DNA of 64,000 nt from Deltaproteobacteria bacterium (lineage in GTDB: Bacteria; UBA10199; 2-02-FULL-44-16; JAAZCA01): positions 7,855-71,854 of the forward strand of contig JABGOS010000118.1 of NCBI GenBank assembly GCA_018645265.1. The letters run 5' to 3'. Below are positions 4,520-56,227 of the stretch, in pieces. How positions within the stretch are numbered: the first letter of the stretch is position 1; every line of letters starts with the position of its first letter. The notes under the pieces were generated by a model. It had not been told where the DNA came from. It ran no database searches and saw only the letters and a list, made by a program, of their open reading frames with translations. The position numbers and the translations under genes were made by a program.

Positions 4520-4535
4520 AATTATTTGATAAAAC

Positions 4536-7289
4536 TTAGTTGAGCCTTTCGATTACCAGTGTTTTGGTGCCCGTGATTTTTTCCTCATCCCTGGAGCCAA
4601 TGATGATGCTGTTGCTGCCAGGTTTCAATGGAATGGTCATGTTGAAATTCATCGACGAGGAACCCTTGGGGTTTGTCTTGTAATCTATCTTTTTCTCATC
4701 GACGAATATGAAGTAATCACGAATCTTATCGTTATCTATTATTGTGCCTGATACTTGGGCTGAGCCGCCATGGACTTTGGTCTGGATGTTGTTGAATGAT
4801 ATCTTCGGTGGTGAAAGTGTGGTGCCAGGTTCCGGCAACATAGTTCCTTTAGTGGGGTAGAGTTTTATTCTCTTTGTTATGAATAAACGGCGTTTTATAT
4901 CGGCCAGCGTTAGGTCTATTGAACAGTTGGATTCGTCAAATCCTGGGAGCATATGAAATTTCAACTTAGTGCTCGTTTTCTGCTTGGCTTTTAGTTCACC
5001 AATTTTGATTCGACCCTTTTCAATAAACACCTTATCATCACATTCCCCGGATAGGCTTATGATGGTGTCTTCACTGCTTGTACCTATACCCTTGTTTTCC
5101 ACTTTGATGTCCATCGCAATCGGTGAACTTTTGAACGCCTTGCCATAGGTTGCTTTTGGTACGCTGTAGCTCATAGAGAAGATTGGTTCTGGGAGTTCCT
5201 TCACAGGAATTCCAATCTTCATTTCTGGAGGTGCCTTCTCATTGGCTTCTTCGAAGGTTAATTCCATAGGTAGGTCCTGCGTCGCCAGGCTTTTTGGAAG
5301 CTCAATAGGCACCTTCCAACTTTTGCTCTGACCTGCTTTTAGGAGGCCGAATGGAAATTCACGGTTTGCAAGGAAAGCGAAATCTTCAGATTGGCCTATC
5401 GCCAGGAGTCTGGAATAATTACCGGTGCCAATATTTTTTGCTGTAAGCTCGATCTCCACTTTTTCACCAGCTTCTGCCTGCTTCGTAGGTTTACCATTCT
5501 GAAGGATCTTCTGTGTGAGCTTGAGCTTTGGTGCGCCAGTGCTCTTTGCTAATTTCCAATCAATGCCTAACTTGCCTAGTGCGGAATCAATCTTTGTCTG
5601 CTCTGCGGCGGTAGCTTTTTCAACAACCGGTTTCGAGGAGCTCAACACGGCGCTTCTTAAGCTATCCTTCGAATTATCCTCAATTATTTTCTGTGAGAGC
5701 TTTACAGCGAAGTCATCGGCAACGTCGATCTTTTTTGAGTATTCACGCTTGGATCTTTCCTCGATCTCCTCTTCCCCCTCCTTGGGCTTGAGGTAACGTA
5801 CAGTGTATTTAGGTTGCTTGAATTTTGATTTCTTAAACTCCTTGCTTCTTTCTAAATGTTCATCAAAGTCCTTCTCTGAGAAGAATTTGTCCGGGTAGAG
5901 GTTGATCTCTTCCTTATCAACTATGACAGGTATGAGATGTATGTCTGGCATAACTCCGATGAGTTGTATGGATTCTGTGCCGGCTGGTTTATATTTCGCG
6001 ATTGTTAGCTTGAGAGCTGTATCGTTGCCGAGTTCAAAGATTGTTTGAACTGATCCCTTTCCAAAGGATTCGCTCCCCATCACAACTGCGCGATTATGCG
6101 CTTGAAGCGACCCTGCTACGATCTCAGAGGCCGATGCTGAACCTTCGTTTATAAGAACTATCACCGGATAATCTGGCTCAGTCCCTCCCAGATGGGCTTC
6201 ATCCTTATCCAAAATGTCTCCACCCTTGCCTACGGTGGACACAATTACGCCCTTCTTTATGAAGAGGTCGGCTATGCTTACAGAGGAGCTGAGCAATCCG
6301 CCTGGATTATTCCTTAAGTCCAGCACTAGGCCGTCGAGCTTGCCATTGTTCTGATCGTGAATACTTTTTATAGCTGCCTTCGTGTCCTTGTATGTATTGG
6401 ACTGGAAGCTCTTTATTCCTATGTATCCTATCTTCTTTTTAGTGGATGGTAGCATTCCATATTTAACGCTATCAATATTAATCAAGGCTCGCGTTAGAGT
6501 TATGCTTCTCGATGGACGACCTTCGCGTTCAACGATTATCCTAACTTTCTTACCGACCTTGCCGCGCAATTTATTTACCGCATCTGTGAGTGACATATTG
6601 ATCGTGGATTCATCACCGATTTGGACGATCTTGTCGCCAGACTTTATTCCATGACGATAGGCGGGAGTTCCTTCTATAGGTGCAATTACGGTGAGCATCC
6701 CATCTTTCATCGTAATGACAATTCCTAATCCGCCGAACTTTCCTCGGGTACCAATTTTAAATTCGTTATAAACTTTTTTAGACAAAAAGTTGGAATGAGG
6801 ATCTAACGCATTCAACATCCCGTTGATTGCAACTCTTTCAATTTCTTCCGGTTTGATATCCCCCTCGTAATTTAAAAATATAAAATCCATGAGCTGAATC
6901 ATAACCTCATCGAGTTGTTGTAGGTTTCTCATAGGACGAATTTTGAATCTTTTCTTTGCGAGTCCCACCGTGACAACTATGAAGTCGTTTCCGTTTTCTT
7001 TTACCAAAATTTCCGGGATTCCCTTTTGAAGCATTTCAAGGGATTCGGAGAGCATCTTCTTGGGATCTATTCTCTTGGGGTCGATGTAGTGTTTATGGAT
7101 TGCTACGATAGCTCTGTCCAAAACATTGCTGTCATATTTTTCCGGATATGCGCTGGAGCTGTTGGTCGCAAGGAGGAAGATGGTGGCACAAAATAGAGCT
7201 ATCGATGCGAAGGCTAAAGATCGCTTTGTAAATGGATTTAATAAATTCATAACTCCCCTATGTTTGAACTCTGTTATATTGTAACCCAC
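4536..7289 (-). CDS. S41-family C-terminal processing (tail-specific) protease with PDZ domain and long C-terminal extension
   Basis: N-terminal signal anchor, PDZ (GLGIVITMKDG...GIKSGDKIVQIGD) and S41 catalytic region (VLDLRNNPGGLL, GSASASEIVAGSLQ). About 300 extra C-terminal residues. Confidence 0.85.
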   Translation of the reverse strand: MGYNITEFKHRGVMNLLNPFTKRSLAFASIALFCATIFLLATNSSSAYPEKYDSNVLDRAIVAIHKHYIDPKRIDPKKMLSESLEMLQKGIPEILVKENGNDFIVVTVGLAKKRFKIRPMRNLQQLDEVMIQLMDFIFLNYEGDIKPEEIERVAINGMLNALDPHSNFLSKKVYNEFKIGTRGKFGGLGIVITMKDGMLTVIAPIEGTPAYRHGIKSGDKIVQIGDESTINMSLTDAVNKLRGKVGKKVRIIVEREGRPSRSITLTRALINIDSVKYGMLPSTKKKIGYIGIKSFQSNTYKDTKAAIKSIHDQNNGKLDGLVLDLRNNPGGLLSSSVSIADLFIKKGVIVSTVGKGGDILDKDEAHLGGTEPDYPVIVLINEGSASASEIVAGSLQAHNRAVVMGSESFGKGSVQTIFELGNDTALKLTIAKYKPAGTESIQLIGVMPDIHLIPVIVDKEEINLYPDKFFSEKDFDEHLERSKEFKKSKFKQPKYTVRYLKPKEGEEEIEERSKREYSKKIDVADDFAVKLSQKIIEDNSKDSLRSAVLSSSKPVVEKATAAEQTKIDSALGKLGIDWKLAKSTGAPKLKLTQKILQNGKPTKQAEAGEKVEIELTAKNIGTGNYSRLLAIGQSEDFAFLANREFPFGLLKAGQSKSWKVPIELPKSLATQDLPMELTFEEANEKAPPEMKIGIPVKELPEPIFSMSYSVPKATYGKAFKSSPIAMDIKVENKGIGTSSEDTIISLSGECDDKVFIEKGRIKIGELKAKQKTSTKLKFHMLPGFDESNCSIDLTLADIKRRLFITKRIKLYPTKGTMLPEPGTTLSPPKISFNNIQTKVHGGSAQVSGTIIDNDKIRDYFIFVDEKKIDYKTNPKGSSSMNFNMTIPLKPGSNSIIIGSRDEEKITGTKTLVIERLN

Positions 7290-7492: not shown

Positions 7493-8902
7493 TTGAATAT
7501 CGGCCAATTATCATCACAATTCTGGTCAGCAGCGATGCCTACAATTCTTGTAAGTACTGGAATAATATGCTTTATGTTGGCTGTCAGTATGGTGGCCCTC
7601 AGGTGGCAGGCTTTCTATTCCTCATTTCGACGAATCATCCTCAGAAGGCCTCAGTACGATTACCATAAGATATTTCGTGATTATCTTGAGAGATTCAACA
7701 CCATAGGGGATCGTAGGGAGTTGTACCCAGCGATTCTTTCAGCCGCCTGTAGAATTATCGATGCATCTGGGGCATCCCTTATAATCAGAGATTCAAAGGA
7801 TACTTTGCAGATGAAGGCTACCTTCGGTCTGAAGCCCTTCAGCTTTGATGTAGGCGAGGTGAAGGAATTCCTTACCAGGCTTGAGACTGAGAGAAGGGTG
7901 ATCACGCGTGGCGACCTGGTAGGTTCAACCAGATATAGGGATATCAAGAATGAAGGTCTTCGCTGGTTTGTGCAGTTCAATGCCGAAGCGTGTGTGCCGC
8001 TTTTTGTTGGAGATAGACTCTATGGTCTTGTCAATCTTGGTTCCAGAAAGAAGAAACGATACGACAGGGAGACTCGTGATCTATTAAAGCTTTTGGCTGT
8101 TCAGTTTGCCACAGCAATTCACAATGCGAATCTCTATCAAGCCCTGATTAAACAAAATCTCAAGTTGCAGGAAACCTCGAAGTTCAAGACGCAGCTGCTT
8201 GCCAATGTATCTCATGAACTGAGAACTCCACTTACTGGAATAATAGGTTTGTCAGAGCTCTTGGCTGAAGGAGGCGATGGCCCGGTTAATGAGGAGCAGG
8301 TGAAACATCTTTTCCTCATTCGTCAGTCTGGCACCAAGCTTCTCGATACTGTGACGGCGATGCTGGACCTTTCGAAACTTGAGGTCGATCGTCTCAATCT
8401 GGCTATCCAGAAGGTTAATATTGGTAAGGTTGTGTCGCAGGTTGCTAGTGATTTGCAGCTTAACAAATATACGAAGCTGGAAGTGAAGATGGGAGATGAT
8501 ACCCCTGGTGTGTATGGTGACGAGCAGAGGCTCAGGCAGATTGTGAAACATCTTCTTGAGAATGCGGTTAAGTTTACGAAGCGGGGCAAGATCTTAATCA
8601 ATGCGGAGAAATGTGGTGAGATGCTTAAGGTTTCAATCAAGGATACCGGTATAGGTATTGATAAGAAGAGACAAAAGATAATATTTGAAGGTTTTCACCA
8701 AGCTGACGGCAGTGCAACCAGGGAGTATGAAGGGTTGGGGCTCGGCCTTACAATATCAAAGAAACTCGTGGAACTACACGGTGGTAGAATTTGGCTTAAC
8801 AGCAAGGTTGGAAGGGGTAGTGAATTCAACTTTACTCTGCCTCTGAAGCCCGCTGGGGTATATTCCGACCAAAGAGCTGGAACCAGGCGTTTTGCCTCAT
8901 AA
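7493..8902 (+). CDS. sensor histidine kinase (TM segment, GAF-like domain, HisKA, HATPase)
   Basis: H-box LANVSHELRTPLTGIIGLSELL. ATPase N/G boxes LLENAVKFT, IKDTGIGID, GLGLGLTISKKLVELHGGRIW. TTG start called by the ORF track. Confidence 0.8.
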   Translation: MNIGQLSSQFWSAAMPTILVSTGIICFMLAVSMVALRWQAFYSSFRRIILRRPQYDYHKIFRDYLERFNTIGDRRELYPAILSAACRIIDASGASLIIRDSKDTLQMKATFGLKPFSFDVGEVKEFLTRLETERRVITRGDLVGSTRYRDIKNEGLRWFVQFNAEACVPLFVGDRLYGLVNLGSRKKKRYDRETRDLLKLLAVQFATAIHNANLYQALIKQNLKLQETSKFKTQLLANVSHELRTPLTGIIGLSELLAEGGDGPVNEEQVKHLFLIRQSGTKLLDTVTAMLDLSKLEVDRLNLAIQKVNIGKVVSQVASDLQLNKYTKLEVKMGDDTPGVYGDEQRLRQIVKHLLENAVKFTKRGKILINAEKCGEMLKVSIKDTGIGIDKKRQKIIFEGFHQADGSATREYEGLGLGLTISKKLVELHGGRIWLNSKVGRGSEFNFTLPLKPAGVYSDQRAGTRRFAS

Positions 8903-11427: not shown

Positions 11428-12831
11428 ATGTACAACAAATCAATTATAATTCTTGCAGATGGGACACGAGCCGATATCTTCGATGAGTTAGTTGCCAAGG
11501 GTGATCTTCCTAATATTTCAAAATATCTCATAGAACCAGGCTCGAAGCTTCCTGCCGTCACGACGTTTCCCTCTACTACTGGGCCTGCTCATCTGCCATT
11601 CCTTACAGGGTGTTTCCCAGGTACCTGTAATGTTCCTGGTATACGTTGGATGGATAAAGCGAAGTACGATGCGGGAGCCTTCTTCAACAGTTATCGTTCG
11701 TATGTAGGGTTTGAGAGCTTCTGCATGGCGAGTGACATGTGGCCCCATATTAAAACTGCTTTTGAACTGATTCCCAATTCATACAGTATTTTTAATTCTA
11801 TTGCTCGCGGTGCGAAGGGCCGACGTAATTTTACGAAGATCAGTCGGATCTGGTACTGGTATTACGGTCATCTGACTGATCGCTGGGGATTCGTCGATGA
11901 TATGGCTTTGAAAAAGTTACTTCAGGTGCTGGAACGTGATCCTGCCTTCGTTTTTACCGTATTTCCGGCTACCGATGTATATGCTCATTTGTCATATCCC
12001 CATCATGAGAGGGTGATCGAGCAATATCGCCGTATGGATGGTTATGTAGGGAAATTGGTGGATACTCTAGTTGCTCGTGGCGAGATGGATACGACAGCGA
12101 TCTTCTTGGTGAGCGATCATGGTCTTTCAAAAACCGATAAACACTTTTGTGTAAATACATTTTTAGAGGATCACGACCTGCCTCCCTTTTTCTATCCGCT
12201 GATCTTCAAGAAGAAGGGAAAACTTTCCGCTAATATGGTGTCTGGTAATGCGATGACGCATCTATATTTCAGGAATAAGGATGGCTGGTCGAGGCGAACT
12301 ACAGTTGATGAGCTGAAAAGTATTTCACCTAATATAATCGATGATCTTTTGGAAGAAGCCGCTGTCGATATTGTTTCGGTACGTAATGGGGAAGGCGGAG
12401 CGGATGTATACAGCAGGAGAGGGCATGCTAGGGTGCGCCTTGATGGGTCGACGCTCCATTATGAAGTAAAGGGATCGGATCCCTTTGGGTATAAGAAACT
12501 TCAATCTGATTTAAGTCCGGAGCTTTCATTGAATAAAACTTGGGAGACGGAATATCCCGATGCACCATTTCAGATTGCACATCTCCTTACGTCACCGCGG
12601 GCTGGCGATCTTATCATTTCGGCTACTCCCGGTTTTGATCTTCGTGTGAAGTATGAACATCCTGAACACTTCGCATCGCACGGATCACTTCATACTAGTC
12701 ACATGCGGGTGCCGATAGTTTCGAATGTGAAGTTTGAGGAAAGGCCAGTGCGAACTGTTGATGTCTTTCCGACAGTTTTAAAGCTTTTAGGTCATGATAT
12801 ACCCGGTCATATCGACGGTGAGCCTTTATAG
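11428..12831 (+). CDS. alkaline-phosphatase-superfamily protein (type I phosphodiesterase / nucleotide pyrophosphatase-like)
   Basis: N-terminal IIILADGTRADIF metal-site motif, TTFPSTTGPAH, and the superfamily hallmark VSDHGLS. Confidence 0.6.
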   Translation: MYNKSIIILADGTRADIFDELVAKGDLPNISKYLIEPGSKLPAVTTFPSTTGPAHLPFLTGCFPGTCNVPGIRWMDKAKYDAGAFFNSYRSYVGFESFCMASDMWPHIKTAFELIPNSYSIFNSIARGAKGRRNFTKISRIWYWYYGHLTDRWGFVDDMALKKLLQVLERDPAFVFTVFPATDVYAHLSYPHHERVIEQYRRMDGYVGKLVDTLVARGEMDTTAIFLVSDHGLSKTDKHFCVNTFLEDHDLPPFFYPLIFKKKGKLSANMVSGNAMTHLYFRNKDGWSRRTTVDELKSISPNIIDDLLEEAAVDIVSVRNGEGGADVYSRRGHARVRLDGSTLHYEVKGSDPFGYKKLQSDLSPELSLNKTWETEYPDAPFQIAHLLTSPRAGDLIISATPGFDLRVKYEHPEHFASHGSLHTSHMRVPIVSNVKFEERPVRTVDVFPTVLKLLGHDIPGHIDGEPL

Positions 12832-12987
12832 ATCATAATAATATCTAACAATATCATATAGGTACGATAAGTGTAGTGGCCAGGCCGCATGCTCATTCTG
12901 GTGCTATAAAACTAGCAACTTTCTTCAATATTTCCCGATAATTACAATAGTTGTAGGGCACAATAAAAGTGATGAGGAGAGTGTGAA

Positions 12988-14865
12988 ATGGTTGATCCAA
13001 TTAAAATCAGAGTGGGCGATTATCAGTTAATAGATAATGGTAATGGCGTGTACAACCCGGAGTGGGATGCGGGAGATAGGTTGGTCAACGATGAGGGCGT
13101 TCTTGTTTCGGAGAAGGATGAGAAGGTTCAGCAGTTCTTGAAAGAGCATGGCCTGGATACGTTCCACGGTTTGAGAGTGAGGGAGTTTGCAGACTATGTA
13201 ACGGTTTTGAGGCAGGAAAAAGTAAAACTCAAAAGTTGTGGAAGTGAGAAGGAGTGTATTGAAGGCTATAAGAAAGTTCAGGAAGCTGCAATTAAATCCT
13301 CAGTATCAGCGAACCTTGAATCTGTGCTCACAAAGCAGCTGATTGAGACGATGGGTGGAAATGGTTACCTTGTACCTCTTTATTTTGCTTCCAGTGAAGC
13401 GACATATGGAAATGTCGGAGGCCTTGATAAGGCTCTTGGAATGGCAAAAAAATTGGCTGATGCATCTGGCGTTGATGCGACCGCGAGAATAGATTCAATA
13501 AAACATAAGGGGTATACAAAGGCTATTGAGCAAGCACATGAGCATGCAGAAGGATATGTGGAGAAGAAATATTCTGGCTGGTTGGCGAATATGAATGGCT
13601 CTTTGAATCGTGTCCTGGACCTTCTAAAAGCAACGAGACTCAGTGGTGATCTTCTTTTCGCTACAAAGTTCATCGGGAAAACCGTAGTTGCCGTTGAGAA
13701 AACTCGCAAGGAAGGTTACCGTCAACATGCTGATGGTTATCTTAAGGTAGCGGATGGATATATAACGAAAGCTTATTCCGGTTGGTTGCAGAATATGGAT
13801 GGCCAGCTGGCTGCTGCGGAGAATACTGCTACGGAAGGTAAGGTGATTGGAGAGTTTACGGCCAGAATCATAGAGACGCGTAGGAAGGGCTACAAACAGA
13901 TGGTTGATGGTCTGGTTGGTCAAGCAACACGATATATGGAGCAAGGATATTCCGGTTGGCTTCAGAATATGAATGCTAACTTGGACCAAGCGATAACCTT
14001 CGTAGAGGCTAAGGTTCAAGGAAAAGAGGAGTATGTGTTTACAGCAGAGGTTCGTAAGGCAATGCTTGCCGCTATTGAAGCAACGAGAAAGGACGGATAT
14101 CGTAAGGATGCTCAATTGTATATCACGCAAGCGGAAGCATATATAACAAAACATCATAGTGGTTGGCTGCCAAATATGGATGGTCAGCTGGCTGCTGCAG
14201 AGAAAACTGCAACGAAAGGTAAGGTGATTGGAGAGTTTGCAGACAGAATTATTGAGACGCGTAGAAAGGGTTATAAACAGATGGTTGATGGTCTGGTCGG
14301 CCAAGCAATACAATATGCCGAGAGGGGACATTCCGGTTGGCTTCAGAATATGAATGCTAACTTGGACCAAGCGATAACCTTCGTAGAGGCTAAGTTGCAA
14401 GATAAGACAGAGCATGTCTTCGTTGCTGCTGCTAAGAAAGGGATGTTTGCCGTTATTGAAGCGGCAAGAAAGGACGGATATCGTAAGGATGCTCAATCGT
14501 ATATCACGCAAGCGGAAGCATATATAACAAAACATTACAGTGGTTGGTTGCAGAATATGGATGGCCAACTGGCTGCTGCAGAGAAAACTGCAATTAAAGG
14601 TAAGGTGATTGGAAAGTTTGCGTCTGATATTATCAAGATGAGAAGAAAAGGTTATACGCGTAAGGTTGATGATCTCATAGCCTCCGCGAAGAGCTTAATA
14701 GCCAGGAGATATTCTGGCTGGAAGACTAATGCAAGTGGCGAGTTAGATAGAGCCGTCGAGTTTGTTAAGGCAAAGATACCTGGCAAAAAAGAGGATGTTT
14801 TTTCCAGAGCTCAGCAGGAGAAGAAGTTAGAGGAGATCGCAGCAGTCAGGACGGAAATAAAATAA
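12988..14865 (+). CDS. tandem-repeat protein of unknown family (YSGWLxNM[D/N]GxL repeats), cytoplasmic by sequence
   Basis: GGAGAG SD. At least 7 repeat modules alternate between two types (GY[KR]..YSGWLQNMDGQLAAAE and GYKQMVDGLVGQA..YSGWLQNMNANLDQAITFVEAK). No signal peptide or TM segment. Confidence 0.7.
   Translation: MVDPIKIRVGDYQLIDNGNGVYNPEWDAGDRLVNDEGVLVSEKDEKVQQFLKEHGLDTFHGLRVREFADYVTVLRQEKVKLKSCGSEKECIEGYKKVQEAAIKSSVSANLESVLTKQLIETMGGNGYLVPLYFASSEATYGNVGGLDKALGMAKKLADASGVDATARIDSIKHKGYTKAIEQAHEHAEGYVEKKYSGWLANMNGSLNRVLDLLKATRLSGDLLFATKFIGKTVVAVEKTRKEGYRQHADGYLKVADGYITKAYSGWLQNMDGQLAAAENTATEGKVIGEFTARIIETRRKGYKQMVDGLVGQATRYMEQGYSGWLQNMNANLDQAITFVEAKVQGKEEYVFTAEVRKAMLAAIEATRKDGYRKDAQLYITQAEAYITKHHSGWLPNMDGQLAAAEKTATKGKVIGEFADRIIETRRKGYKQMVDGLVGQAIQYAERGHSGWLQNMNANLDQAITFVEAKLQDKTEHVFVAAAKKGMFAVIEAARKDGYRKDAQSYITQAEAYITKHYSGWLQNMDGQLAAAEKTAIKGKVIGKFASDIIKMRRKGYTRKVDDLIASAKSLIARRYSGWKTNASGELDRAVEFVKAKIPGKKEDVFSRAQQEKKLEEIAAVRTEIK
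13740..14640. repeat. about 378-bp tandem DNA repeat, roughly 2.3 nearly identical copies, internal to the repeat-protein gene
   Basis: 13775-14152 versus 14153-14530 are identical by eye apart from scattered substitutions (e.g. ggatggccagctggctgctgcggagaatactgc / ggatggtcagctggctgctgcagagaaaactgc). A partial third copy follows at 14531-14640. Confidence 0.8.
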
Positions 14866-14892
14866 TTGCTGGTATTTAATGTTAATGACCGG

Positions 14893-14921
14893 GGCTACCT
14901 TCTTGGTAGCCTTATTTTTTT
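14893..14921 (+). terminator. rho-independent terminator after the repeat-protein gene
   Basis: ggctacc-ttctt-ggtagcc hairpin followed by ttattttttt. Confidence 0.6.
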
Positions 14922-15119
14922 ATGTAACTTCTTTGCATCATCCGTAATGTCAATGGGATGATATTCGTTGGAATTGGGAGAATGGTCTGGAATGCATACC
15001 TGTCATTTCCTCTTGAAATCCTTTCACTTCATCTATATGGTCAGCCTTCAAATTGAACGGGAGGTTTGATGGCGACGCAACACGTTGAAATAACAAATAA
15101 AATTAATAAGGAGAATGAT

Positions 15120-19687: not shown

Positions 19688-20719
19688 TCAACAAATTCTA
19701 GGCAGCTGCTCGCCGGAGAGCATGGTGATTAAACGGCGACTGCCGATAGTTGTTATTAGGTTCACCTTTCCAACGTTATCTTCGGTGACGCAGCCTATAA
19801 TTTCAGATTCTTTTCCCTGTGGATGGGATTGCATAGTTGCCAGCGCTACTTCGGCTGAATCGGCTGGCACTACAGCCACTAGTTTTCCTTCGTTTGCGAC
19901 GTAGAGAGGGTCGATGCCTAAAAGCTCGCATGCCGCTGCTGTTCCCTCTTTTAGGGGGATCTTGCTCTCATCTATTTCAATACCAAAATTGTTCTCACCG
20001 ACCGCTTCACAAAGAACTGTAGCGAGTCCACCGCGAGTTGCATCGCGCATAAATTTTATATTCGGCACTGCTGCAGAGAGATGCTCTGCTAGTGAATTTA
20101 AGGGTGCGCAGTCGCTCTCGATTGAAGTATCCATGGATAATCCCTCGCGCGCACTCATTATGGCCATTCCATGGTCGGCAATTGATCCATTGATGATGAT
20201 TACATCGCCAGTTTCTATACGGGAGGAGGTCATAGCCTGCTTTACAAAAAGCTGTCCAATGCCAGATGTGTTGATAAAGATCCCATCACAGTTTCCCTTT
20301 TCAACGACCTTTGTATCTCCAGCGACTATCATTATTCCGCATGCTCTAGCTACGGTAGCCATCGATGCAACGATACTCTCCAACTGCTTAAACTCAAAAC
20401 CCTCCTCGATGATGAATCCAGCAGTCATATAGATGGCTCTTGCGCCGGACACAGCCAGGTCATTTACAGTGCCGCATACGGCGAGCTTACCGATGTCACC
20501 GCCAGGAAAGAAGATAGGTTTTACCACATATGAATCTGTCGTATATGCGAGATATGTTCTTGGTATTTCAACTATGGCAGCATCACCCATAGCGTTTAGG
20601 ATGGGGTTGCTGAAATGACTTGCGAATATTCCCTGAATCAATTCTTGGCTCTGTATTCCACCACCGCCATGTGCCATTGTGATTCGTGATTCGTTGTTGC
20701 TGAGTTGTGTTTCATTCAT
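19688..20719 (-). CDS. hypE: [NiFe]-hydrogenase maturation protein HypE
   Basis: N-terminal MAHGGGG motif and the PurM/AIR-synthase-like fold. The C-terminal Cys (PRIC) is consistent with HypE. Confidence 0.9.
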   Translation of the reverse strand: MNETQLSNNESRITMAHGGGGIQSQELIQGIFASHFSNPILNAMGDAAIVEIPRTYLAYTTDSYVVKPIFFPGGDIGKLAVCGTVNDLAVSGARAIYMTAGFIIEEGFEFKQLESIVASMATVARACGIMIVAGDTKVVEKGNCDGIFINTSGIGQLFVKQAMTSSRIETGDVIIINGSIADHGMAIMSAREGLSMDTSIESDCAPLNSLAEHLSAAVPNIKFMRDATRGGLATVLCEAVGENNFGIEIDESKIPLKEGTAAACELLGIDPLYVANEGKLVAVVPADSAEVALATMQSHPQGKESEIIGCVTEDNVGKVNLITTIGSRRLITMLSGEQLPRIC

Positions 20720-20733
20720 AAAAACCTCGGGTG

Positions 20734-21816
20734 TTAGCTTCCATATTTAAAATGAGCGGCACACGTCCCTTCGCTAGATACCATGCATGCACCTATGGGA
20801 TGTGAGGGAGTACAATTATTTCCAAATAGTGGGCAGTCTGCCGGCTTAATGTTTCCAGTAAGGATTTCTCCACAACGACATCCGGCTGGTTCCACAGTCT
20901 CTTCAATTGTGACGTTGAATTTTTTAGCTGCATCGTAGGATGAAAACTCATCCCTTATCGACAAGCCGCTTTCAGGTATGTTTCCAATACCTCTCCATTC
21001 CGCATCCGACGCTTCAAATATTCTGTTCAGCAGAGCTTTCGCTTTTATATTTCCGTTGGCGGTAACTACCCTGCGATATGAATTGTGGAGCTTGGGGTCA
21101 CCTGAGGAGATTTGAACAGCCAACTCATAAATTGCTTCGAGCATATCTGAAGGTTCAAAGCCTGCAATGGAACAAGCCACGGGATGTTTTTCAAAAATAG
21201 GGGTATAAGACTCGGATCCTATGATAGTGCTAACGTGTCCTGGAAGGATGAAGCCGTCGATCTCTGTCCGACCTGATAGCAGGGCTAGGAGGGCGGGAGG
21301 GACAACCTTGTTGGCACAAAGCACTGAATAGTTGCTGATACTCTGTCTTGATGCGATGTCGATGGATGCGGCAATAGTTGGAGCTGTTGTCTCAAAACCT
21401 ACGCCGAGGAATATAATTTCTTTATCGATATTATTTCGAGCCAACTCCAAAGCATCCAATGTTGAATATACGATACGGATATCCTGTCCACGGGCACGCT
21501 CACTCTCTAGGCTGGACGTCGACCCTGGAACCTTTATCATATCCCCAAAGGTGCATATGATAGTATTATCCTGACGGGCAAGTGCAATCGCGTGATCGAG
21601 GTAGCGATTCGGTGTTACGCAAACGGGGCAGCCAGGTCCAGATATCAGATTGATATTCTGAGGAAGGATCTGTCGAATTCCAAAACGAGCGAGCGCCATA
21701 GTATGCGTTCCGCAGACCTCCATTATCGTCATAGATTGATCTTTGGCTACCGCAACGATACGGTTTGCTATCGCGTTGGCTTTTTCCCGATCCCTGTATT
21801 CGGTGATATATTTCAT
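20734..21816 (-). CDS. hypD: [NiFe]-hydrogenase maturation protein HypD
   Basis: CGTHT, GPGCPVCVTP and C-terminal CxxC...CxxC motifs (ETVEPAGCRCGEILTG; CPLFGNNCTPSHPIGACMVSSEGTCAA). Confidence 0.9.
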   Translation of the reverse strand: MKYITEYRDREKANAIANRIVAVAKDQSMTIMEVCGTHTMALARFGIRQILPQNINLISGPGCPVCVTPNRYLDHAIALARQDNTIICTFGDMIKVPGSTSSLESERARGQDIRIVYSTLDALELARNNIDKEIIFLGVGFETTAPTIAASIDIASRQSISNYSVLCANKVVPPALLALLSGRTEIDGFILPGHVSTIIGSESYTPIFEKHPVACSIAGFEPSDMLEAIYELAVQISSGDPKLHNSYRRVVTANGNIKAKALLNRIFEASDAEWRGIGNIPESGLSIRDEFSSYDAAKKFNVTIEETVEPAGCRCGEILTGNIKPADCPLFGNNCTPSHPIGACMVSSEGTCAAHFKYGS

Positions 21817-21827
21817 ATTGATTTGAA

Positions 21828-22070
21828 TTATGATTGATCTGAATTGTCGTTTCTTGCGATTTCAGCCATCTTGTTGAGAAGCTTAACCGTCTCCTCCGCT
21901 TCCTTCTCATCTATCTTCTTGATTGCGAATCCTGCGTGTACGAGGATGTAATCTCCAATATCGGCATCGTCGAGGAAGGCGATGTTCACATCCCTCTTCG
22001 TTCCTCCGACGTTGACGGTCGCGGATTCGTTTTCAATTTTTTCAATTTGCATCGGTACAGCCAAACACAT
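21828..22070 (-). CDS. hypC: [NiFe]-hydrogenase maturation chaperone HypC
   Basis: Starts MCLAVP (the HypC Cys2 signature). 80 aa. Confidence 0.85.
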   Translation of the reverse strand: MCLAVPMQIEKIENESATVNVGGTKRDVNIAFLDDADIGDYILVHAGFAIKKIDEKEAEETVKLLNKMAEIARNDNSDQS

Positions 22071-22085
22071 GTGATCTCTCCTGTA

Positions 22086-22553
22086 TTACTGTAAAAAACC
22101 GAACGCCGTTCTATCATCTTCCATTTCGGAGCATTCGATATCCGAATGGGAGTTTACGAGTTTAAGAAAAAGTGGAATATCAGTGATCCCCTTGATGAAG
22201 ATTTCATGAAGCCTCTTCGTATTTTGAGGGACGAGCTTTAGAGCTGTGGTGCGCGGGCCACGCAGTAGGCGCTGAATGCCCTTTATGTCGGAGAATTTAA
22301 TGAATCTCTCAGGTCCCCATAGAAGACGCATGCCCACTCTATCGCTATAGAGTTTGAATCTGCATAGTATCGATTGCTTCGTGAGCGTTGTAGCTCCCTT
22401 TAATGTCGTCCAGGATGAATAGATAACGGGGTCAGTAGAACCCTCAGCGATGATGGCTTCTCCAAATCTCTTCATGCGCCATGTGATGACATACGGGGAG
22501 ACGAGTATTAGTCCGACTATAATCAGAACAATTGTCAGCAATTGAGTATCCAT
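22086..22553 (-). CDS. hypothetical single-pass membrane protein located between hypC and hypF
   Basis: TM helix LLTIVLIIVGLILVSPYVITW. No recognisable motifs. Start set at the internal ATG (MDTQLL) to avoid overlapping the hypF stop. Confidence 0.45.
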   Translation of the reverse strand: MDTQLLTIVLIIVGLILVSPYVITWRMKRFGEAIIAEGSTDPVIYSSWTTLKGATTLTKQSILCRFKLYSDRVGMRLLWGPERFIKFSDIKGIQRLLRGPRTTALKLVPQNTKRLHEIFIKGITDIPLFLKLVNSHSDIECSEMEDDRTAFGFLQ

Positions 22554-22563
22554 CCTCTTCCTT

Positions 22564-24867
22564 TCATTTTGTTTTATGAAGGTGTGCTGCGATGGCCGCC
22601 TGTCCAAGTGCTACGCCTCCATCGCCTGGGGGCACGAGAGAGTGCGTATAGACCGTAAACCCTTTATCTACAAGTAATTTCTTGAGTTTCGTCATCAGTA
22701 TCGCATTTTGGAAACATCCCCCCGACAGACAGACACGCCGTCTGTCGTGTATTGCATTCCCTTTATCAATTTTTGTACATATATCGAACAATGCGCCTAC
22801 AATTGTATTGTGAAAACGCATACTTATAACGCCAAGCTCTGTGCCAGCTTGAACCCCCTCGCTGATGGCTGCAATCATCGGCGAGAAATTAATTCTCAGT
22901 GCTCCGTTGCAGGTTTCGTCGATTGTAAATGGATATACACCGTGCTCAGATTCGTCCGCAATCTGCTCAAGCTCCATCGCTGCCTGTCCCTCGAAAGAGT
23001 TTTTCATTCGAAGACCTGTCAAAGCTGCCACAGCGTCGAAAAGTCTTCCGCAGCTGGAGGTCATCGGGCAGTTGATATCCTTTTCAATCATCTGCTGAAC
23101 AAATTTAATTTTCTCATCACCGATTTTTTTGAAATGTTGAATCGTTCGCACTCTGCTGTCTGCAGTCTGAAGATATGCGAGTGCCATCCTCCAACATTCC
23201 TTCGCTGCGACATTCCCCCCGGGCATTGGTATCTGTCCGAAGTGTGCAGCACGCTCGAATGTTTCATAATCGGCCATGAGAACTTCTCCACCCCAAATTG
23301 TTCCGTCCGTTCCGAACCCCGTTCCATCGAGTGCGATGCCGATTACCTTTTCATTAGGTAAATCGTTTTCAGCCATGCAGCTGGCTATGTGAGCATGATG
23401 GTGTTGCACTTCAGTGATCGGTGATCTGTGGTTGGTCGCTATTTTATTTGCAAAACGTGTGCTGAAATAATCTGGATGCATATCGCATGTGACGATCTCG
23501 GGTTTAATGTTCAGAATGTGCATCAGGTGGTCAGCTACCATCTCCAGAGAATCATGGGAATCCAAATTCTCCATGTCACCCAAATGCTGCGATAAAAAAG
23601 CATTGTGACCCTTCGTGAAACAGATGGTGTTTTTTAGATCCGCTCCAACAGCGAAGAGTTGTGGCATTTCAAAGCTCAGTCTTATCGGTGTTGGTGTATA
23701 GCCGCGTGCCCTGCGGAGCATCAACGGCTTGCCATCCATAAGGCGGGTTATGGAATCATCGACTCGAATATGAATATTGCGATCGTGGATGAGGAATGCA
23801 TCAGCTATATCCTTCAGTTTGCGAAACGCCTGGTCATCAATGAATGCGATAGGCTCGTTGGAAATATTGCCACTGGTCATAACCAAAACGCGCCCTGCAC
23901 CAGATTTAAAGAGCAAATGATGTAATGGCGTGGAAGGTAGCATCACACCTAAGTGACTATTGCCCGGGGCAATCATCTCTGAGATTTTCGAGCCCTCTTT
24001 TCTATGCAATAGCACGATAGGGCGCTGTGGTGATATCAACAGCCTTTCTTCCTCATCAGAAATATCACAGAGGGTATTTACTGTCTGTATATTACCAACC
24101 ATGATTGCGAACGGCTTTTCATCACGATCTTTGCGTGCGCGAAGCCTTGTCACCGATTCATCATTCGTGGCATCGCAAGCGAGGTGATAGCCGCCTAACC
24201 CTTTGACCGCGATGATCTTGCCATCATCCATAGATCTCAATGCCTGTTTAACAGGGTCATCAGGGGATTGGGAGGTCGAATTGTCAGACCGGATGAACTT
24301 CACTTGTGGCCCGCACCTTTCGCACGCATTTGGCTGTGCATGAAATCTTCTATTCGATGGGTCGGTGTATTCGTGCTTGCAATCCTCACAGAGTTCAAAC
24401 TCCTTCATCGTCGTCATTGGACGGTCGTATGGTAAATGCTGAATTATGCTATAGCGCGGGCCGCAATTCGTACAGTTGATGAAAGGATATGCGTATCTCC
24501 TGTCGCCTGTATCCATCAGCTCTCTCGTGCAATCATCGCAAGGTGCGATGTCTGGAGATATTAACGTGGTTGAGCTTCCAGTATTTTCGCTTTCGATGAT
24601 TTTGAAATCCGTTTCATCGGTGGTGTTTATAACGGTTGAATCGATTCTTTGAATATGGGCGAGGGGAGGGAGCTCATTTTGAACTCTATCTAGGAAGGAG
24701 TTCAAACGCTCCTCCGGGCCTTCTGCTTCGATTGTCACTCCTTCGGAATGATTGAAGACGTGACCGCCCAGTCCAATTTCCGTAGCTAGCTTGTAGATAA
24801 ACGGACGAAAGCCCACACCCTGAACGGTGCCATCGATATCTATACGCCAGCGGCTGGAAAATCCCAT
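22564..24867 (-). CDS. hypF: carbamoyltransferase HypF
   Basis: Acylphosphatase domain (VQGVGFRPFIYKLA), twin Zn-finger repeats (CDDCTRE...CTNCGPRYSII; CEDCKHEY...CERCGPQ), YrdC-like and Kae1-like domains (HHHAH..., GGCFQN). Confidence 0.9.
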   Translation of the reverse strand: MGFSSRWRIDIDGTVQGVGFRPFIYKLATEIGLGGHVFNHSEGVTIEAEGPEERLNSFLDRVQNELPPLAHIQRIDSTVINTTDETDFKIIESENTGSSTTLISPDIAPCDDCTRELMDTGDRRYAYPFINCTNCGPRYSIIQHLPYDRPMTTMKEFELCEDCKHEYTDPSNRRFHAQPNACERCGPQVKFIRSDNSTSQSPDDPVKQALRSMDDGKIIAVKGLGGYHLACDATNDESVTRLRARKDRDEKPFAIMVGNIQTVNTLCDISDEEERLLISPQRPIVLLHRKEGSKISEMIAPGNSHLGVMLPSTPLHHLLFKSGAGRVLVMTSGNISNEPIAFIDDQAFRKLKDIADAFLIHDRNIHIRVDDSITRLMDGKPLMLRRARGYTPTPIRLSFEMPQLFAVGADLKNTICFTKGHNAFLSQHLGDMENLDSHDSLEMVADHLMHILNIKPEIVTCDMHPDYFSTRFANKIATNHRSPITEVQHHHAHIASCMAENDLPNEKVIGIALDGTGFGTDGTIWGGEVLMADYETFERAAHFGQIPMPGGNVAAKECWRMALAYLQTADSRVRTIQHFKKIGDEKIKFVQQMIEKDINCPMTSSCGRLFDAVAALTGLRMKNSFEGQAAMELEQIADESEHGVYPFTIDETCNGALRINFSPMIAAISEGVQAGTELGVISMRFHNTIVGALFDICTKIDKGNAIHDRRRVCLSGGCFQNAILMTKLKKLLVDKGFTVYTHSLVPPGDGGVALGQAAIAAHLHKTK

Positions 24868-56143: not shown

Positions 56144-56227
56144 TGCGAGAGAGGGGACTCGAACCCCTACAGCCTTGCGGCCACAAGAACCTGAATCTTG
56201 CGTGTCTGCCAATTCCACCACTCTCGC
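56144..56227 (-). tRNA. tRNA-Leu (anticodon CAG)
   Basis: Minus strand: GCGAGAG acceptor stem, anticodon stem-loop CAAGA-TTCAGGT-TCTTG, long variable arm GTGGCCGCAAGGCTGTAG, T-arm GGGGTTCGAGTCCCC. CCA is not encoded. Confidence 0.8.

Follow-up and report, generated by a model that had tools for sequence, protein, structure and literature searches.

A candidate helical rod protein with a conserved N-terminal head and alternating 58- and 69-residue modules from a Deltaproteobacteria genome

We analyzed a 64,000-nucleotide stretch of DNA (the window; positions 7,855 to 71,854 of contig JABGOS010000118.1) from a metagenome-assembled genome (MAG) assigned to the Deltaproteobacteria. It contains an open reading frame (ORF) of 625 aa at 12988-14865 on the forward strand, for which a tandem-repeat protein had been proposed from the sequence alone. 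The ORF was confirmed, and its product, referred to here as the window protein, is deposited as MBT3182391.1, 'hypothetical protein HN337_07790 [Deltaproteobacteria bacterium]', in NCBI. The window protein carries seven modules of two alternating types behind a non-repetitive N-terminal domain, which the original prediction of a protein made of repeats had missed. The reading that we favor, tentatively and at a little under an even chance, is that the protein is a non-enzymatic, elongated α-helical structural rod, scaffold, or spacer, in which an acidic head is followed by a basic, length-variable rod of helical hairpins.

Repeat architecture and age of the repeats

The SGW motif was found seven times in the window protein (aa 196, 264, 322, 391, 449, 518, and 576), at spacings of 68, 58, 69, 58, 69, and 58 aa. 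Because the spacings alternate, two module types alternate, as had been predicted. The type A modules (modules 2, 4, and 6) are 58 aa long and the type B modules (3 and 5) are 69 aa long; the terminal modules 1 and 7 are divergent and B-like. G7, Y8, A19, S28, G29, W30, N33, L38, and F54 are common to all seven modules.

12988..14865, forward strand: coding sequence, 625 aa, 69.5 kDa, isoelectric point (pI) 9.1
13492..13695, forward strand: module 1, aa 169-236, 68 aa, divergent B type
13696..13869, forward strand: module 2, aa 237-294, 58 aa, A type
13870..14076, forward strand: module 3, aa 295-363, 69 aa, B type
14077..14250, forward strand: module 4, aa 364-421, 58 aa, A type; amino acid identity 86% to module 6 and 69% to module 2
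14251..14457, forward strand: module 5, aa 422-490, 69 aa, B type; amino acid identity 77% to module 3
14458..14631, forward strand: module 6, aa 491-548, 58 aa, A type
14632..14862, forward strand: module 7 and C-terminal helix, aa 549-625, divergent B type; best match, at 48%, to the last module of the relative P0003

An A and a B module together form a super-repeat with a period of 381 bp or 127 aa, as determined with Tandem Repeats Finder (score 1260) and from the internal repeat spacing of 381, in place of the 378 bp and 126 aa first proposed. Exact shared runs extend up to 65 nt, and the repeat is far above chance. When 13775-14152 and 14153-14530, which had been described as differing by a handful of substitutions, were compared in the 378-bp register, their identity was 28%, the level of random sequence. 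At a period of 381 starting from 13775 we counted 61 differences (84% identity), and the best 381-bp register gave 85%.

The units are thus not near-identical. Whole-unit DNA identities were 78% between units U1 and U2, 69% between U2 and U3, and 61% between U1 and U3; the corresponding protein identities were 73%, 61%, and 53%. Synonymous divergence (dS) between whole units was 0.6-2.1, and 0.32 for the closest module pair, 4 and 6; among copies with DNA identities of 69-85% it was 0.3-0.9; the ratio of nonsynonymous to synonymous divergence (dN/dS) between copies was 0.18-0.32. Since dS is high and dN/dS is low, the repeat copies are old and have been kept under purifying selection, and the very recent duplication that had been supposed does not hold. 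Patches of exact identity up to 65 nt long, such as 13949-14013 and 14330-14394, may be conversion tracts.

At the protein level, modules 2, 4, and 6 are mutually 66-86% identical and modules 3 and 5 are 77% identical, and the best match of modules 2-6 to any module of the close relatives P0002 and P0003 does not exceed 50% identity. Together with the similarity of module 7 to the terminal module of P0003, these sequence comparisons indicate that the end modules were probably retained as positional orthologues and that the internal A+B unit was amplified within the lineage.

A family defined by the N-terminal domain

An exhaustive phmmer/HMMER scan of 1.84 billion representative proteins (E ≤ 0.001) returned 20 matches, 18 of which look like real relatives. 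Another, P0001, is the same gene as the window gene and is also among the 20 matches, and P0014 was rejected as an unrelated eukaryote-like repeat. The strongest matches beyond the gene itself were as follows.

P0002: 626 aa, 36% identity to the window protein, E = 1.8e-112
P0003: 568 aa, 37% identity to the window protein, E = 2.3e-101

What the family has in common is an N-terminal domain some 170-190 aa long (about aa 1-168 of the window protein; hereafter the N-domain), which was detected with E-values from 1e-112 to 1e-7 by phmmer and hmmsearch. It bears the motifs Y.L(I/V)D(D/N)G(D/N)G.(Y/F), D30, G37, G55, G(I/L), and G.GCYIPL..A, with G18, D30, and G55 invariant in alignment A2. It is this domain that defines the family and by which relatives are found. 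In the family as delimited here, to which the window protein belongs, the N-domain is joined to at least one helical module of the form R..GY / aromatic-G-x / (M)(N/D)..L. The turn motif differs by relative (SGW, YRW, ARYGR, KGWKDEMN, or NGY), and so does the number of recognizable modules, with seven each in the window protein and P0002, six in P0003, and three in P0004. The proteins form a small, previously undescribed family with the N-domain and helical hairpin modules in common.

A charge dipole was observed across the family. In each of the 17 members tested the head or N-domain is acidic (pI 4.2-5.7; 5.1 for aa 1-168 of the window protein), and in 12 of them the repeat region has a pI of 8.8 or more; its net charge in the window protein is +18. 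This opposition of acidic head and basic repeats favors the rod reading.

The repeat motif had been called unrecognized, and indeed no credible match to the window protein was obtained in Pfam, NCBIfam, PHROGs, PADLOC, or PDB sequences. The first four libraries were scanned with the window protein and 17 family members; no catalytic family was matched in any of them, and no family was matched by more than one member. Weak matches (Pyruv_OxRed_insertion at 27.3 bits, PAD, phrog_1090, and ZorF) were inflated by the repeats, were never common to two members, and were discarded as noise. When the PDB was searched by sequence and by profile, using the protein itself and the profiles A1 (modules) and A2 (N-domain), the best match was to an EEP-domain protein at E = 0.0067 over a stretch of 42 residues, and all others were to designed repeats. 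Searches of a protein database with alignments A1 and A2 gave nothing, a weak negative since P0001, which is present there, was missed as well. Relatives were also absent from a genome contig scan with the protein and from viral and metagenome contig scans with alignment A4, of which the metagenome result is weak because known JGI carriers were missed. The viral contigs gave 20 pattern matches, and no relative is encoded in any of them.

Predicted structure

An AlphaFold2 (AF2) model of the window protein from its single sequence had a mean predicted local distance difference test score (pLDDT) of 43. With the 17-sequence family alignment A3, pLDDT was 93.2 and the predicted template modeling score (pTM) was 0.61. 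In this model the head is followed by a protein that is all-helical, which bears out the helical repeats expected from the sequence.

12988..13317, forward strand: N-domain head, about aa 1-110; AF2 strands 5-9, 12-16, and 31-34 and helices 45-53, 64-82, and 87-103; acidic; motif Y.LID(D/N)G(D/N)GVY.P...D
13318..13491, forward strand: cryptic module 0, about aa 111-168; AF2 long helix 113-140, YGN turn, and short helix 143-160

Each hairpin is predicted to consist of a long helix of 29-36 aa bearing RK.GY, a Y-S-G turn, and a short helix of 15-18 aa. Every SGW lies at a turn, and the short helices begin at W198, 266, 324, 393, 451, 520, and 578. The linker is short in A modules ('GKVIGEF') and longer, with a β-bridge, in B modules ('VQGKEEYVF'). 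From the model, module 0 is best taken as a degenerate eighth hairpin, and the conserved N-domain has this hairpin as its C-terminal half. In agreement with such a cryptic hairpin, aa 125-180 of the window protein are where the P0005 repeats align. The conserved residues (RK.GY in the long helix, YSGW, N, and L at the turn and short helix, and F in the linker) are read as packing rather than catalytic residues in the model. On inspection, we rejected the idea that 'DNGNG' is a DxDxDG-type calcium site, since its Asp residues are out of register.

When the model was compared with the PDB using Foldseek, only generic helical repeats and rods were found (Ctr9, designed toroids, Exo70, and MUN), with template modeling scores (TM-scores) of 0.1-0.2; against BFVD there was nothing below E = 0.001. 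The fold is confidently predicted but of a generic helical-repeat type.

A phasin or a late embryogenesis abundant (LEA)-like protein had been among the early suggestions. As a granule coat or desiccation protectant, an amphipathic protein of the phasin, LEA, or apolipoprotein kind would likewise be helical, repeat-rich, Lys/Ala-rich, and moderately hydrophilic, and the window protein has a grand average of hydropathy (GRAVY) of only -0.48. We regard this as highly improbable, because no Pfam match to phasin, LEA, or apolipoprotein families was found, and because the model predicts ordered hairpins with a conserved Trp/Tyr/Phe/Met core, not disordered 11-mers or 22-mers. Modules of 58 and 69 aa combined with a conserved globular head are unlike those families, and there are no polyhydroxyalkanoate genes nearby.

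A shorter version of the gene and the question of assembly

A word-indexed single-sequence search of 5.8 billion proteins yielded P0001 (498 aa) as the sole relative. It is encoded on the ENA contig L001 (2,238 bp, SPAdes coverage 2.07), which is 100% identical to window positions 12260-13857 and 14216-14878 and lacks exactly one unit.

13858..14238, forward strand: 381-bp unit missing from L001; the junction lies within a 23-nt exact repeat (13835-13857 = 14216-14238)

The short form either is a true allele, produced by unequal crossover within one and the same population, or reflects the collapse of a low-coverage assembly. The copy-number variability inferred by the original prediction therefore stands to the extent that one variant shorter by exactly 381 bp exists, with the reservation that 2x coverage may have produced it. 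An exact 38-nt probe detected no further alleles in a metagenome contig collection, which is a weak negative because that collection missed even JGI contigs known to carry family members.

That a second assembly holds a version one unit shorter also bears on whether the array itself is an assembly artefact, or the ORF not a real gene. Short-read assemblies are often broken or wrongly joined at repeats, and contigs of 2-6 kb carry most of the homologues. However, all three units differ from one another, by 15-39% in DNA, so the window array is not an artefactual expansion by re-use of one copy. In addition, dN/dS is 0.2-0.3, homologues from other, independent samples carry six to seven modules, and the window contig is 221 kb long. 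Any artefactual version would be the short one at 2x coverage. We consider an artefact scarcely credible.

Gene signals and genomic context

The window gene is real and under selection, as judged from dN/dS, a GC content and third-position GC content (GC3) equal to those of neighboring genes, a Shine-Dalgarno sequence, and a terminator-like site. The latter two were read from the sequence and had been anticipated.

12975..12979, forward strand: Shine-Dalgarno-like AGGAG, 8 nt before the ATG
14891..14923, forward strand: terminator-like hairpin followed by a T-run, 9-bp stem with 5 GC pairs, beginning 26 nt past the stop codon

The count of terminator-like sites in the region did not exceed the shuffle expectation, and only the position of this hairpin is suggestive. 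The gaps flanking the gene are 156 nt and about 200 nt, which makes a monocistronic unit plausible; by this sequence evidence the gene looks monocistronic, as was first thought. An antisense ORF of 314 aa (13624-14568, reverse strand) lies wholly within the repeat array. It most likely just mirrors the repeats, on a strand that they leave free of stops, and is not a gene.

Upstream of the window gene lie genes for OEP, MlaC, and a type I phosphodiesterase, and downstream those for AhcY and a deoxynucleoside kinase. The closest genome (L002, a MAG labelled 'uncultured Myxococcales') has an AhcY 91% identical and retains the flanking genes. Its synteny with the window, examined by blastn and tblastx, ends at 12822 and restarts at 15007.

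12823..15006, no strand: variable slot between conserved genes

In L002 this slot, again bounded by the phosphodiesterase and AhcY genes, is filled by a 467-aa ORFan (4535-5938, forward strand) that is unrelated to the window protein (BLASTP of the slot proteins, E = 1.7). Because of this replacement, the intergenic position appears to be a replaceable slot. Hydrophobic stretches occur in the ORFan, which gave no match in Pfam, PHROGs, or PADLOC. No direct or inverted repeats suggesting insertion of a mobile element were found flanking the window gene.

P0002 (626 aa) and P0006 (459 aa) are adjacent same-strand paralogues in MAG GCA_964462555.1 (L082, 10001-11881 and 11944-13323), and they also occur in L083. 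This adjacency is the only context feature that recurs among the homologues. No conserved partner gene emerged: the L002 slot ORF and the genes downstream of the homologues in L084 and L090 are mutually unrelated.

P0005 lies among AbiEii, DUF6036, HTH_3, DUF6908, and aspartic-protease-like genes (L085), a setting that has the look of a mobile or defence-type island, unlike the other contexts. Elsewhere in the window, a hydrogenase maturation cluster is found downstream at 19688-24867 on the reverse strand (HypE-like AIRS, HypD, HypC, and HypF), preceded by TPM-phosphatase and LemA genes; this cluster suggests an anaerobic or hydrogen-metabolizing host. One tRNA gene (56144-56227, reverse strand) is the only Rfam match in the window at the gathering threshold.

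The replacement of the gene by an unrelated ORFan in the closest genome, the AbiEii, HTH, and DUF6036-type genes around the distant relative P0005, and the extremely sparse and patchy family would also be expected of accessory cargo in a variable hotspot. Such cargo might act in conflict, as a polymorphic effector or immunity protein or as a phage-defence sensor, with the rod as its recognition surface. We find this quite improbable. PADLOC matches were at noise level (ZorF, 21.8 bits, a single 35-aa stretch) with none common to family members, neither the viral-contig scan nor the BFVD fold search (nothing below E = 0.001) produced a relative, and no toxin, nuclease, or NTPase domain was found. 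Furthermore, the composition of the gene is native-like, and the contexts in L082, L090, and the window are housekeeping or mixed.

Export signals and localization

The window protein begins MVDPIKIRVGDY, with low maximal hydrophobicity and no lipobox ([LVI][ASTVI][GAS]C). An in-frame TGA lies five codons upstream of the ATG, and hence an N-terminal extension or signal peptide is impossible. No transmembrane segment was detected (maximum of 1.23 in a 19-aa Kyte-Doolittle window). The original prediction was thus correct on both points. The closest relatives (P0002, P0003, P0004, P0006, and P0008) likewise start directly at the domain, without a signal peptide or lipobox. A lipobox-like Cys is present in 8 of the 18 members, 15-45 residues before the N-domain, and is accompanied by a canonical h-region in three of these. 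These members are P0005, P0009, P0011, P0012, P0016, P0017, P0019, and P0020, several of which then have 'SPN(F/Y)' before the N-domain. Judging from the sequences, the same N-domain seems to occur in exported lipoprotein forms and in signal-less forms.

The lipoprotein-like relatives raise the alternative of an envelope or surface protein, such as a coat, an adhesin, or a periplasmic spacer, whose repeat number would alter reach or antigenicity and which would leave the cell by non-classical export in the window lineage. Beyond the lipobox-like Cys and the hydrophobic h-regions upstream of the same N-domain, several observations are consistent with this: the slot of the gene is variable and is taken up in the sister genome by an unrelated gene, another genome carries paralogues in tandem, and module number varies among relatives. 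Variation in repeats within genes is characteristic of the surface proteins of bacteria (PMC2639597), and envelope spacing can be set by how long a helical lipoprotein is (Lpp, PMC5736177). However, the window protein and its five closest relatives have neither signal peptide nor lipobox, the stop codon five codons upstream closes off an export signal in the window gene, and no secretion-system genes are adjacent to it. An envelope function for the window protein therefore seems to us unlikely, though worth keeping in view.

Discussion

In the rod, scaffold, or spacer reading, an acidic β/α head of about aa 1-110 would lead into a cryptic and seven recognizable helical hairpins, eight in all. 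The internal A+B double module of 127 aa and 381 bp would have been amplified to three copies by unequal recombination and would then have diverged under purifying selection. The product might serve as a rod, scaffold, or spacer, or as a multivalent binding platform for an anionic partner, and its length would change in whole-module steps; the existence of a variant lacking exactly one unit is in favor of this. Because it has no signal peptide, the protein would be cytoplasmic in the window lineage, and distant relatives may be anchored to the membrane as lipoproteins.

Several points weigh against this interpretation. The AF2 model was built from only 17 sequences, and at a pTM of 0.61 its overall shape is uncertain. 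The fold of the head was compared only within the whole protein, and a ligand-binding or enzymatic head could be present. The lone copy-number variant may be an assembly collapse, given its 2x coverage and a junction within a 23-nt repeat. No gene neighborhood is conserved across the window and the homologue contexts examined, and the lipoprotein relatives fit uneasily with a cytoplasmic role of the window protein.

A bolder extension of the rod reading, which we offer as speculation and think distinctly unlikely, is that these proteins constitute a modular class of 'rulers' in which an acidic head sits on a basic rod of 58- and 69-aa hairpins tuned in recombination steps of 127 aa. Such rulers would serve uncultured Deltaproteobacteria-like bacteria in the cytoplasm and also, in lipoprotein form, in the envelope; they would set a distance or offer multiple sites to an anionic polymer or membrane.

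The present analysis adds two new elements to the α-helical repeat proteins, a head domain and a 58/69-aa hairpin module, neither of which has a counterpart in Pfam, NCBIfam, or PDB. It also provides a clean natural case of what appears to be lineage-specific amplification of a double module. The family comprises about 18 representatives in 1.84 billion proteins, seemingly with both cytoplasmic and lipoprotein forms. If these proteins are length-tunable spacers or scaffolds, they would be of interest to envelope biologists and protein designers. The immediate value is modest, with no functional handle and no cultured host.

Comparison with known systems

As predicted helical hairpins, the modules may resemble the stacked antiparallel hairpins of the α-solenoid fold class, although structure matches reached TM-scores of only 0.1-0.2. 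The tetratricopeptide repeat (TPR) and Sel1-like repeat (SLR) α-α solenoids (BF2334, PDB 4i17; LGN; Ctr9) are built of units of 34-44 aa with equal helices, whereas the window modules are 58 or 69 aa long and pair a long helix of 29-36 aa with a short one of 15-18 aa. Neither the window protein nor the 17 family members matched a Pfam TPR or SLR family, and the TPR consensus is unrelated to the signature RK.GY...YSGW..NM...L, again with TM-scores of 0.1-0.2.

Spectrin and plakin repeats and the CATCHR rods (Exo70 and the MUN domain of Munc13) are eukaryotic cytoskeletal or tethering factors; they have no sequence relation to the window protein and gave TM-scores of about 0.2. A spectrin repeat has about 106 aa and three helices (PF00435), and the window unit differs in both length and helix count. 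Phasins are set apart by the lack of any Pfam or NCBIfam match, by the size of 625 aa with a globular head, and by neighbors that are a phosphodiesterase, AhcY, a deoxynucleoside kinase, MlaC, and OEP. LEA proteins differ in that the window protein has no Pfam match to them and is predicted to be ordered (pLDDT 93) with a GRAVY of -0.48. As for known anti-phage defence proteins (PADLOC) and phage proteins (PHROGs), the family gave only sub-threshold matches, each of a single member.

Designed helical repeats (DHRs, iTHR, and tcTRP; 5cwg, 9mg8, and 9d01) are likewise regular helical hairpins and recur among the top profile and structure matches. They are artificial, and the likeness says only that the window modules are regular α hairpins.

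In intragenic repeat genes of Mollicutes and Legionella, recombination between repeats changes protein length by module (PMC2639597, PMC2996958), and the gain or loss of whole modules there is similar to that in the window family. Compared with other length-variable bacterial repeat proteins, the window units are long (381 bp) and diverged (69-85% identical), and slippage should therefore be rare. The length-ruler concept developed for Lpp (PMC5736177) is relevant in that some relatives are probable lipoproteins, whereas the window protein has no export signal. Although it falls outside the TPR/SLR, spectrin, phasin, and LEA families, the window protein would be expected to work like an α-solenoid or a spectrin-type rod.

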